Sequence record: PZ386971.1
DNA from: a phage
Reading direction: 5' to 3' (one strand)
DNA: 64,000 nucleotides
The translations under genes and the position numbers were made by a program. The notes under the pieces are model-generated. The model was not told where the DNA came from. It worked only from the letters and a program-made list of their open reading frames with translations, and made no database searches. Shown here one piece after another: positions 17,074-20,759 of the stretch (positions within the stretch are counted from its first letter, which is position 1; every line of letters begins with the position of its first letter).

Positions 17074-17148
17074 GATAAGGGGGCTGACGCTCCCTTTTGG
17101 TTTCGCTAATTAGAAGAAACCGCCGTTAATTCAATCAGGAGATATAAA

Positions 17149-20133
17149 ATGTCAAAGCCAAGTTTCCTCCAGTTCATGCAGGAAAGAGATCAGTTGGACG
17201 AAGCGTTCAACTCCGCTCCGTATGAGCTGACCATGGGTAAGAAGAACGCAGGCGATGTGTTCTTCACCTTCGTCGACGAAGATGATAAGGAATACCGCAT
17301 TCAGTTCTATACTCCTCAGGGACTGGGCAAGAGCGTTCGTCAGGTTTTCATCGGCCAGAAGCGCGGCTCCGTCTATCCTGACGCCATCGCTCGCTTCAAG
17401 AACCCAATGCGCGTTATTGCTTCCATGATCGAAGCGACCAAACAATTCATGGCGACTCCTCTGGGCAAAACTATCGATGGCTATGCTGTCAACTTCTCGA
17501 AGAAAGCGCTGGATCGCGGTATGACCCTGATTCCTAAGATCATCCGCCAGTCCGGTCTGAAGCAGAAACTGAATGTCATGGACCTGACCTACGCGCCTGT
17601 CCCTGACCGTGGTTATGTGTGGCTAGTTCGTAAGGGCAAAGATCCGGCTCAGGTATTCGACGGTCCGAAGATGCAGGGTATCACCTGGGATGATCCAGAC
17701 AAGGTCGGTGACGTTCCGGTTCAGAACAATACTCCGGATGTGGGTGTGTCATCTTCTGTTGATAATTCCAACGGATGGAAATTAACTTCAAACGGGGATC
17801 AGCCCATGTTGATATGGGCTGGTAAGGAGAGAGGCCGCACGAATACGGCAAATATCGCTCCCCACTACAATGAGCCGGGCGTGTATGTTGGCGCATACAT
17901 GAATGAGAAACCTGTGCGTGGGCAAAGTGCTGATTTCATTGCTCGTCAGTTGAAATTACCACAAGTCCCTATCAGTATCCTGAATGATTTCACCACGGCG
18001 TCCACAAAATTTTGGAAAGGTTCTCAACAGAAATCTGCGCCTGTTGTGCCGGCAGGTTCGGACAGAAATAACCCAGCCAACATTATCGGTTCTGGAACTG
18101 CTGTTATTGATGCCAAACGGCTTGGTGCTCAGGAAGTAAACGTGGAACGATTCAAAAACGGCGTTCGCATGCGTTCTCGAAACGGTGACGTCGACATCAG
18201 TATTTCTGACCCAGACTTTTCAAATGCAGCAAGTGCGGCTGATGCTGCCACAGCCTCTGTTGTGGTCAAGAACGGGCGTTACGAAGGTGCCATCAATTCA
18301 AAGCGCAAGATTGCCCGCACCTCGAACGAGCAGGGTACTGAATGGGATATTATCGGCGTCAACGGGGAAATCCTTGTCTCTATCAAGTTGAACAAAGTGT
18401 CTAAATCCACATCAGATTCGACCGAGGGTGCAACCAGTGTTGATCAATTACGTGACAGCGGTTTCATCGCTCGTGTTCTGGGTATCATTGATACCAACGT
18501 TGGGCTGGACACTTCTATTCTTCCTGGTGAAAACATCCGTCGCGTGGGCGCTGGTCGTTACACGACGACAGGCGGGTTGGTTATCGTTGTCAACTTCACA
18601 AACGTCCTCGCTGGTTTCGTTCAATACTCAGTTTTCAGCGAAATTGCTGAAGAGGAGAACGTGGCCAAAGGTAGCGCCCGTGACGTCGCCAAGGCGGTAA
18701 TTGCGTCCATCTTTGAGGTTGCTAAGACCCAGTACACTGGCAAATGGGAAATTAGCGCAGTGCCAACAAGCGCTCCATATCCTATCAAAGCCATTCGCCG
18801 TTCTCGGGGCTGGGGTTATGTGGAAACCGCAAACTGGACTCTGACAGTGTCCGACGCTGTCCTGAATCGTGTGAAGCCAGGGAACACTGCTCTGCTGGAA
18901 CTCATCAAAGAGCCTCCGCGTGGCAAGCACCTGCTGGAAATCATCCCAGAGAAGGGCGACAAGACCCTGATGCTGAAAGATCGTATTACCGGGGCCATCT
19001 ATGGTTCTATCGACCTGAATGCCCAAGGCGCTGATCTGGTCAACTCTGGAACCCTGAAGATACCAAGCAACGCCATGGTGTTTGGTGAGACTGTCAACGG
19101 TATGTCCATTCGGTGGGATGTCAATTTCCCCGAAACGGGAAAATACGCCGGTACTTCTATGATAACCAACGTGACCTATTACTACGACAAAGGTAAAGTT
19201 GCATTCACCCCAATTGTCTCTCAGAAAGGGCGTACCCTGAACAATCCGAAGACATATGAACTTCCTTTAAACAAAGATATGGTCCAGAGTGTGATTGATG
19301 AGATTTCATCAAAAATGGTATATCTTTCCAGAAACCTCCAACAGTTGAAAAGTCAGTCATACAACCCAAACCAGGTGTTCTTGAACGATATAACCATCAC
19401 GGATAAAGGTGAAGTGATTTGGAATGATTACAACTTGTCTGACGGCAAAGTTACACAAATTATGCTGTCCATGATAAGCGCAGAAAATAAACGCCTGGAG
19501 AAAGTAGCAAACACGCCGGATATCAATATCACATTGCCCAAGAAACAAGCTGAAGTGGTAGAATTTATAAACCGGATGATCGACATCGATCTCACCCCTT
19601 ATGTGAGAACCCCCAAAAAACGTGATGTGGTATTATTTGACTCTTCTGAATTGTCGATAAACCAACTCAACAACATAGAACGCCTGGGAAGAGAAACAGG
19701 AAAATGGTCTCTTCAGCCAAACGGTGGTATGGGTCATGCACTACTTCTGAAAAGCACGTCGCACAATCCGAAGGACGACCTTGCGGCATACGCCGACTCC
19801 ATTCGCGACAACGCACCAAAAGGTCGCGACCTGGATTGGCAGATCTATGCAAGCCGTGATGGTCAGACTCTGAACGTGGACTGGGATATCACCTTCCGCC
19901 GCAACACAACTGAAGGGGCATATCGCGAGTTCAAAGCTCAGATTGACCGCGCCAACCAGTACCTGCAGACACTGTACCGGGATGCGAAGTCCAAGGGTTA
20001 CAACCCGACTGAACCAAACCTGATGACTCTGGCTCGCGCCCAGCAGTCTGACCAGTGGTCACAAGACAACGGGGAAAGCGCATACAGCGAGTACGAGCAG
20101 TCCCTGGGTGGCAACATGCAGATTAAGATCTGA
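17149..20133 (+). CDS. large hypothetical protein (994 aa)
   Basis: Long uninterrupted ORF; no recognisable catalytic motifs. Confidence 0.6.
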   Translation: MSKPSFLQFMQERDQLDEAFNSAPYELTMGKKNAGDVFFTFVDEDDKEYRIQFYTPQGLGKSVRQVFIGQKRGSVYPDAIARFKNPMRVIASMIEATKQFMATPLGKTIDGYAVNFSKKALDRGMTLIPKIIRQSGLKQKLNVMDLTYAPVPDRGYVWLVRKGKDPAQVFDGPKMQGITWDDPDKVGDVPVQNNTPDVGVSSSVDNSNGWKLTSNGDQPMLIWAGKERGRTNTANIAPHYNEPGVYVGAYMNEKPVRGQSADFIARQLKLPQVPISILNDFTTASTKFWKGSQQKSAPVVPAGSDRNNPANIIGSGTAVIDAKRLGAQEVNVERFKNGVRMRSRNGDVDISISDPDFSNAASAADAATASVVVKNGRYEGAINSKRKIARTSNEQGTEWDIIGVNGEILVSIKLNKVSKSTSDSTEGATSVDQLRDSGFIARVLGIIDTNVGLDTSILPGENIRRVGAGRYTTTGGLVIVVNFTNVLAGFVQYSVFSEIAEEENVAKGSARDVAKAVIASIFEVAKTQYTGKWEISAVPTSAPYPIKAIRRSRGWGYVETANWTLTVSDAVLNRVKPGNTALLELIKEPPRGKHLLEIIPEKGDKTLMLKDRITGAIYGSIDLNAQGADLVNSGTLKIPSNAMVFGETVNGMSIRWDVNFPETGKYAGTSMITNVTYYYDKGKVAFTPIVSQKGRTLNNPKTYELPLNKDMVQSVIDEISSKMVYLSRNLQQLKSQSYNPNQVFLNDITITDKGEVIWNDYNLSDGKVTQIMLSMISAENKRLEKVANTPDINITLPKKQAEVVEFINRMIDIDLTPYVRTPKKRDVVLFDSSELSINQLNNIERLGRETGKWSLQPNGGMGHALLLKSTSHNPKDDLAAYADSIRDNAPKGRDLDWQIYASRDGQTLNVDWDITFRRNTTEGAYREFKAQIDRANQYLQTLYRDAKSKGYNPTEPNLMTLARAQQSDQWSQDNGESAYSEYEQSLGGNMQIKI

Positions 20134-20157
20134 TCATTGAAAGCCCCTTCGGGGGCT

Positions 20158-20165
20158 TATAAATA
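20158..20165 (+). promoter_or_regulatory. T4-type late promoter TATAAATA
   Basis: Exact TATAAATA 25 nt upstream of ATG 20190, after hairpin AGCCCC ... GGGGCT. Confidence 0.55.
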
Positions 20166-20189: not shown

Positions 20190-20759
20190 ATGAAACCGTT
20201 TATCGAATATTTTAAAGAACAAGCCGCTAAACCTCAGACCCATGCTGGTGTCCAGGGTAAGACCGTATCCATCACCAAGCAAGCTGACGGCACCCAGTGG
20301 TGTTCCGGCGCTACCGTGACCCAGATCACCCCTGACAATCAGGCGGATGTCTACAACCTGGAGTTAACCAACGGCAACACTATCAAGGTGAAGCTGACTC
20401 CGGATCAGACCCATGGCATTACCCAAGGCCAGGAAGTTGTTGCTGTCCATGACGGTTTCGAATTCTTCTTTGGCAAGTCTGCCGACAAAGGCCAGGTGAC
20501 CGAATCCTATGCTCAGGAACTGGCGAACATGGACAAGATGATCGGTAAAGCACTGGGTGCTGGCAAGTCTCGCAAGAGTGGTCGTACTGAGTTTGAATAC
20601 TCTGGCATCCCTGGCATCGGCAAGGCGATCACCGTGAACTTCGGTGGTGAAGATGACCCGTATGTGATCGTCACCTGCAACGGCAAGGAGCATGATATCA
20701 GCAAGGGTAAAAACCTGGCTGCTGACATTGCCAAGTTCCTCGGTGTTAAGCCTGTCTAG
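20190..20759 (+). CDS. hypothetical late protein (189 aa)
   Basis: ATG with GAGGAG RBS; late promoter upstream. Confidence 0.55.
   Translation: MKPFIEYFKEQAAKPQTHAGVQGKTVSITKQADGTQWCSGATVTQITPDNQADVYNLELTNGNTIKVKLTPDQTHGITQGQEVVAVHDGFEFFFGKSADKGQVTESYAQELANMDKMIGKALGAGKSRKSGRTEFEYSGIPGIGKAITVNFGGEDDPYVIVTCNGKEHDISKGKNLAADIAKFLGVKPV

Follow-up and report, generated by a model that had tools for sequence, protein, structure and literature searches.

The 994-aa open reading frame (ORF) at 17149..20133 (+ strand) of the window, i.e. the whole 64,000-nucleotide (64 kb) stretch of phage DNA analyzed here (PZ386971.1), probably encodes a protein packaged inside the head, akin to T4 Alt and the internal proteins but without the enzyme domain of Alt; we assign this reading a probability of about 0.62. 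In all likelihood, the protein travels inside the head and enters the cell together with the DNA. Its head location, its cleavage, and its ejection are what we infer from the evidence below.

The ORF starts with ATG, 7 nt downstream of an AGGAG Shine-Dalgarno sequence, and encodes a modular virion protein of 110 kDa (pI 8.9) without cysteine. As the first-pass annotation had stated, no other ORF in the window is as large; the next ones measure 781 and 760 aa. The phage belongs to the Ackermannviridae, and its nearest relative was Escherichia phage vB_EcoM-ZQ1 (97% identical). According to the ZQ1 annotation, the surrounding genes encode gp46/47-like proteins, a gp55 sigma factor, RNase H, and primase, and these flanking replication and recombination genes agree with the early genes noted next to the ORF in the earlier reading. 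The gene family was found in all Ackermannviridae genomes examined.

Orthologues were detected in virions of three phages. In Sajous1, the orthologue gp214 yielded 196 spectra in CsCl-purified virions and was a top-five protein (PMC10892097). In LIMEstone1, ORF81 was covered to 55% (23 peptides) and ORF82 was represented by four peptides (PMC3296691). The XF4 orthologue is labelled 'unknown structural protein', and that of JA15 is likewise annotated as a structural protein. The proteomes of Sajous1, LIMEstone1, and XF4 were taken from whole virions, with head and tail measured together. The split into ORF81 and ORF82 reflects a 1-nt length difference with respect to 17 identical Limestonevirus records; considered as an objection to cis-targeting by the N-terminal module, it was set aside on these grounds. 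Of the roles proposed from the DNA alone, that of an ejected virion protein is thus favored: its virion part is borne out by the orthologues, and ejection is predicted.

Routine searches of the whole protein yielded little. Pfam gave nothing at E ≤ 0.1 (the sole row, Lectin_C_term, had an E-value of 0.21 and fell under its cutoff), no match was obtained from NCBIfam or from a PDB sequence search, and Foldseek of the full AlphaFold model against the PDB returned none at E ≤ 1e-3. The scanned Pfam set left out PF26846, a newer family for the Alt N-terminal region. A Walker A motif was absent, as had been noted from the DNA. An enzymatic domain of any kind was found neither in Pfam, NCBIfam, and PHROGs nor in fold searches, leaving the suggestion of a host-modifying enzyme unsupported. 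The assertion that the protein has no recognizable domains held for these routine searches but not for profile-profile, structure, and tblastn comparisons, in which three of six modules were recognized.

Residues 19-184 (17203..17700, + strand; pI 9.5), a basic module and the most conserved part of the protein, show remote homology to the T4 Alt N-terminal region, as detected by hhalign, HMM, and Foldseek comparisons. Against ten Alt N-terminal regions, hhalign gave a probability of 95.2% (E 2.8e-8, 163 columns), placing query residues 14-181 on Alt residues 2-182 with 17% identity. The Alt alignment was compiled from phage records, and a word-indexed search with the Alt N-terminus gave five proteins. 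The HMM of the N-module family matched T4 Alt collinearly (p 1.7e-5), and Foldseek against BFVD matched the Alt proteins of SP18, phiAS5, Henu6, and 50AhydR13PP (probability 1.0, E 1e-3 to 5e-3, about 180 columns). Alt was not matched in routine HMM searches with the N-module, the family carries no precomputed PF26846 annotation, and phmmer of Alt versus the family gave only chance-level stretches in close homologues. Foldseek/BFVD also returned proteins annotated as Zeta toxin, cytidine deaminase, and ParB/Srx over about 170-230 columns, a match length that would fit the N-module, the output being without coordinates. A GNAT-like fold for the module was rejected: the SpeG match had a probability of 0.9 but an E-value of 0.14, and an acetyl-CoA motif common with Alt was absent.

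More than 60 proteins begin with the N-module and continue into C-terminal parts unrelated to one another. The catalytic ADP-ribosyltransferase family PF03496, of the R-S-E type, was present in four of 62 N-module proteins. One family member, P0197, joins the N-module to an ADP-ribosyltransferase domain, whose match to T4 Alt has an E-value of 5e-15, and both P0197 and a paralogue adjoin gp23, scaffold, Peptidase_S77, and portal genes. For three further distant members, the contigs were so short that the gene neighbourhood was uninformative. PF03496 matched T4 Alt at 5.8e-36, and gave no match to the 994-aa protein at E ≤ 1; fold searches of the latter likewise found no ADP-ribosyltransferase fold. 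Residues 19-184 are a predicted domain for head-core targeting or tethering.

The first 18 residues (MSKPSFLQFMQERDQLDE; 17149..17202, + strand) form a putative leader or propeptide that is disordered in the AlphaFold model. It carries a pattern resembling a capsid targeting sequence (CTS), F-x-x-F-h-x-E, followed by a predicted prohead-protease site, L16-D17-E18|A19. Among 45 sequences, E18, A19, F20, and N21 were invariant and L16 was at least 90% conserved, and about 65 distant homologues kept L-x-E-[AS]-[FL]-[DN] behind leaders that vary. Hhalign paired the site with I4-T5-E6|L7 of T4 Alt, which is cleaved by the prohead protease at ITE-6. The protein contains eight (L/I)-x-E motifs, near chance expectation, so that the weight of the site comes solely from its conservation and from its alignment to the Alt site. 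The segment PSFLQFMQE is similar to the T4-type YQEFIAE and FNEFFNE (sequences for comparison were taken from the T4 and SP18 genome records), but it is offset, a second site follows it, and ten residues are too short for statistics. Similar CTS-like leaders were seen throughout the N-module family. In Vi01-like phages, the prohead protease is of the Peptidase U9 type. A cut after E18 would create the predicted mature N-terminal peptide AFNSAPYELTMGK (AFNSSPYELTFGK in the Kuttervirus version), and the peptide DQLDEAFNSAPYELTMGK in virions would mean that the leader is not removed. The Sajous1 supplements, searched for the peptide of the predicted mature N-terminus, returned nothing.

The AlphaFold model comprises six domains with disordered linkers between them, in keeping with the multi-domain architecture suggested earlier. 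Cassette A (residues 208-292; 17770..18024, + strand; GC3 0.46), delimited by the model, tblastn, and alignment, is a small beta-plus-helix domain carried by part of the family only: tblastn found it in 147 phage records, compared with 356 for the N-module. Cassette B (residues 313-416; 18085..18396, + strand), a beta-rich domain supported by the model, tblastn, and a drop in alignment coverage, is rare in the family and occurred in just 12 phage records, each time within the orthologue of this ORF. The conserved core (residues 421-786, 366 aa; 18409..19506, + strand) is an alpha+beta domain with antiparallel sheets backed by long helices; almost all the invariant residues fall in 636-785. It was modelled confidently, and a fold match in the PDB was absent.

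Cassette C (residues 797-868; 19537..19752, + strand) is a homologue of the small stand-alone internal head proteins encoded at the ipI locus of T-even phages. It matched the PHROGs family phrog_7673 'internal head protein' at E 3.8e-10 and the SP18 internal protein at E 1e-13 in a pairwise comparison; in SP18, the gene is flanked by 57B and trna.4, the same place as T4 ipI. A tblastn search with the cassette retrieved 153 Straboviridae records at 35-43% identity, many of them labelled internal head protein. The C-terminal module (residues 877-994, TFRRNT ... AYSEYEQSLGG; 19777..20130, + strand), acidic with a pI of 4.8, was recognized by its high pLDDT and its recurrence. It also ends about 60 small proteins, many with L-x-E leaders and one with a T4-type capsid targeting sequence, and is elsewhere joined to DUF7270/phrog_3923 and phrog_5704 parts.

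Codon usage tracks the module boundaries, with conserved ends set against swapped cassettes, and does not simply fall from N- to C-terminus. Residues 1-200 had an optimal-codon fraction of 0.66-0.67 (GC3 0.61-0.66), the middle of the protein 0.47-0.64 (GC3 0.46-0.59), and the final 94 residues, which top the scale, 0.74 (GC3 0.69). Strong optimization of the first 200 residues had been noted correctly from the DNA; the weaker usage described for the remainder applies to the middle of the protein but not to its last 94 residues.

Upstream of the ORF lie a terminator-like hairpin (17077-17096, + strand) and a conserved 21-nt element, TCGCTAATTAGAAGAAACCGC (17103-17123, + strand). The latter is unique in the window and is thus no recurring promoter motif. 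Neither TATAAATA with at most one mismatch nor a sigma-70-like site was found 5′ of the ORF. The upstream hairpin and the failure to find a late promoter upstream, together with the remoteness of the Alt-N homology, count against a head-packaged protein. Downstream, where the first-pass annotation had placed a late promoter, an exact TATAAATA, one of only three copies in the whole 64 kb, forms a T4-type late promoter (20158-20165, + strand), 25 nt past the stop codon; the next ATG follows after 24 nt. This promoter is overlapped by a hairpin with a UUCG loop (20141-20158, + strand) and serves the next gene, not the 994-aa ORF. This next gene (189 aa; 20190..20759, + strand) begins with an almost canonical T4-type capsid targeting sequence, MKPFIEYFKE, and its orthologues were found in virions (LIMEstone1 ORF80, XF4, and Sajous1 gp215). 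Its product is probably a co-packaged partner, the two genes belonging to one small cluster of virion-protein genes. Literature searches on Ackermannviridae capsid cryo-EM, Kuttervirus transcriptomics, and PF26846 gave nothing relevant.

Under the head-packaged reading, the protein would be made late enough to enter the prohead core via its N-terminal module (residues 1-184), consisting of the CTS-like leader and the basic Alt-N-like domain. The phage's own prohead protease, of the T4 gp21 type, would then cut L16-D17-E18|A19, a step suggested by motif and alignment, and the leader would be lost. A mature product of about 108 kDa would remain in the filled head and, at infection, would be threaded out with the DNA, as happens with Alt and the internal proteins of T4. 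The build of the protein, a chain of small domains with disordered linkers and no cysteine, would permit such threading. A size of 108 kDa exceeds that of most known ejected T4 proteins, which counts against this reading. The cargo, which takes in the core and the C-terminal module as well as cassettes A, B, and C, is swapped by recombination among related phages, and cassette C is a T-even internal head protein embedded in a larger polypeptide rather than encoded by a separate gene. If T4 IPI and Alt are a guide, the cargo might most likely serve to protect the entering DNA early on or to take over the host.

Other explanations for an abundant virion protein have to be weighed. An internal head protein that stays structural, organizing or counter-charging DNA or contributing to an inner body rather than acting as an injected effector, would likewise be abundant in virions. 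The basic N-module and several basic cassettes, the failure of Pfam, NCBIfam, and fold searches to detect an enzymatic domain, and the adjacent genes, which code for a Dps-like protein and further small virion proteins, are all consistent with it. We consider it unlikely, as the cassettes are swapped and patchy among close relatives, which suits host conflict better than a fixed structure, and as ejection is known for its recognizable relatives, Alt and the internal proteins of T-even phages. A component of tail, neck, or baseplate is what the label 'tail completion protein' implies, which the orthologue bears in the Sajous1 paper (PMC10892097) and in the record of Klebsiella phage UPM 2146; abundance in whole-virion proteomes would agree with it, and T4 alt itself adjoins baseplate genes. 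However, Pfam, PHROGs, NCBIfam, PDB, and BFVD showed no similarity to tail families (tail-fibre rows in BFVD had probabilities of at most 0.08), and homology to T4 gp3/gp15 or to beta-helix tailspikes was sought and not found. Homology to a tail fibre, named beforehand in the first-pass annotation as evidence that would speak against its proposal, was not detected by Pfam, PHROGs, Foldseek against PDB and BFVD, or a further fold search. Moreover, tail-completion proteins are annotated separately in LIMEstone1 (ORF127, the T4 gp3 homologue) and in ΦSH19 (165 aa, listed under the T4 Gp19 family), and all recognizable modules point to the head interior, so that a tail location seems quite improbable.

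Even less probable is an external decoration or fibre of the capsid, with small beta domains strung together and displayed as in Hoc, despite the beads-on-a-string model and the beta-rich, variable cassettes: the family has a separate Hoc homologue, Ig-like or Big domains were not matched in Pfam or by Foldseek against the PDB, and the N-module bears a protease-site motif along with its homology to Alt, an internal protein. That a non-virion early or middle protein merely contaminated the virion preparations is hardly credible. Its position among replication and recombination genes, with no upstream late promoter found, would be compatible with this, and the Sajous1 list does include obvious non-structural contaminants; those had one to three spectra, whereas the Sajous1 orthologue reached 196 spectra and that of LIMEstone1 a coverage of 55%, with counts far above contaminants and detection in three independent studies.

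A head-packaged protein of this kind has its closest counterpart in T4 Alt, the head-packaged and injected ADP-ribosyltransferase of Straboviridae. The two have about 165 homologous N-terminal residues in common, both possess a short leader ending in (I/L)-x-E at an aligned position, and both are large, present in virions, and encoded outside the head gene block. Distant relatives of the N-module carry the Alt-type ADP-ribosyltransferase domain, which the 994-aa protein does not. It further differs from Alt in its cargo, five other modules that form a mosaic and recombine, and in its longer leader, which is similar to a capsid targeting sequence. With the T-even internal proteins (IPI, IPII, IPIII, and other ipI-locus proteins) it shares cassette C, homologous to those of SP18, RB33, Moon, and others, and a content that is hypervariable between close relatives; the F-x-x-F-h-x-E pattern of its leader recalls MKTYQEFIAE. 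However, these are stand-alone proteins of 8-20 kDa present in hundreds of copies, whereas cassette C is a domain within 110 kDa that has lost a capsid targeting sequence of its own. The same logic of a conserved head-association module with variable C-terminal cargo is known from polyvalent or MuF-anchored packaged effectors (PMC5512222, PMC9503650), although the anchor here is an Alt-N-like module and not MuF, and none of the ART, kinase, methylase, peptidase, ParB/Srx, and MuF set of polyvalent proteins (Iyer et al. 2017) was found. Giant-phage ejection proteins (phiKZ, SPN3US) are also large and accompanied by paralogues, and they are head-internal, as is predicted here; their N-terminal propeptides are cut after Glu at a short motif by gp21-like proteases. 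Their motif is A/S-x-E instead of L/I-x-E, and a relation in sequence or fold was not detected.

Possibly, counter-defence or takeover modules are joined in the protein into one injected 'polyprotein', with the N-module as a general carrier into T4-type proheads, although we regard this more far-reaching proposal as doubtful. Such a carrier may be used across Ackermannviridae, Straboviridae-like, and Vibrio/Aeromonas phages, and the cassettes, among them the embedded T-even internal protein, and the 366-aa core may represent independent host-defence inhibitors, with ipI-like shuffling taking place within one frame. Ackermannviridae phages like this one modify their DNA, and one candidate target may be the enzymes that attack this modified DNA.

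The gene has so far been annotated as 'hypothetical' or, misleadingly, as 'tail completion protein', although its product is among the most abundant virion proteins. The link to the packaging of Alt and internal proteins gives a testable function to the entire small cluster of virion-protein genes, which the LIMEstone1 paper noted as ORF78-85 without explaining it (PMC3296691). It also suggests that the Alt N-terminal region is a portable head-loading module for many different cargoes, which would be useful for predicting injected effectors and as a means of loading foreign proteins into Ackermannviridae biocontrol phages. The variable cassettes and the fold-orphan core are candidates for new anti-defence or host-takeover activities.

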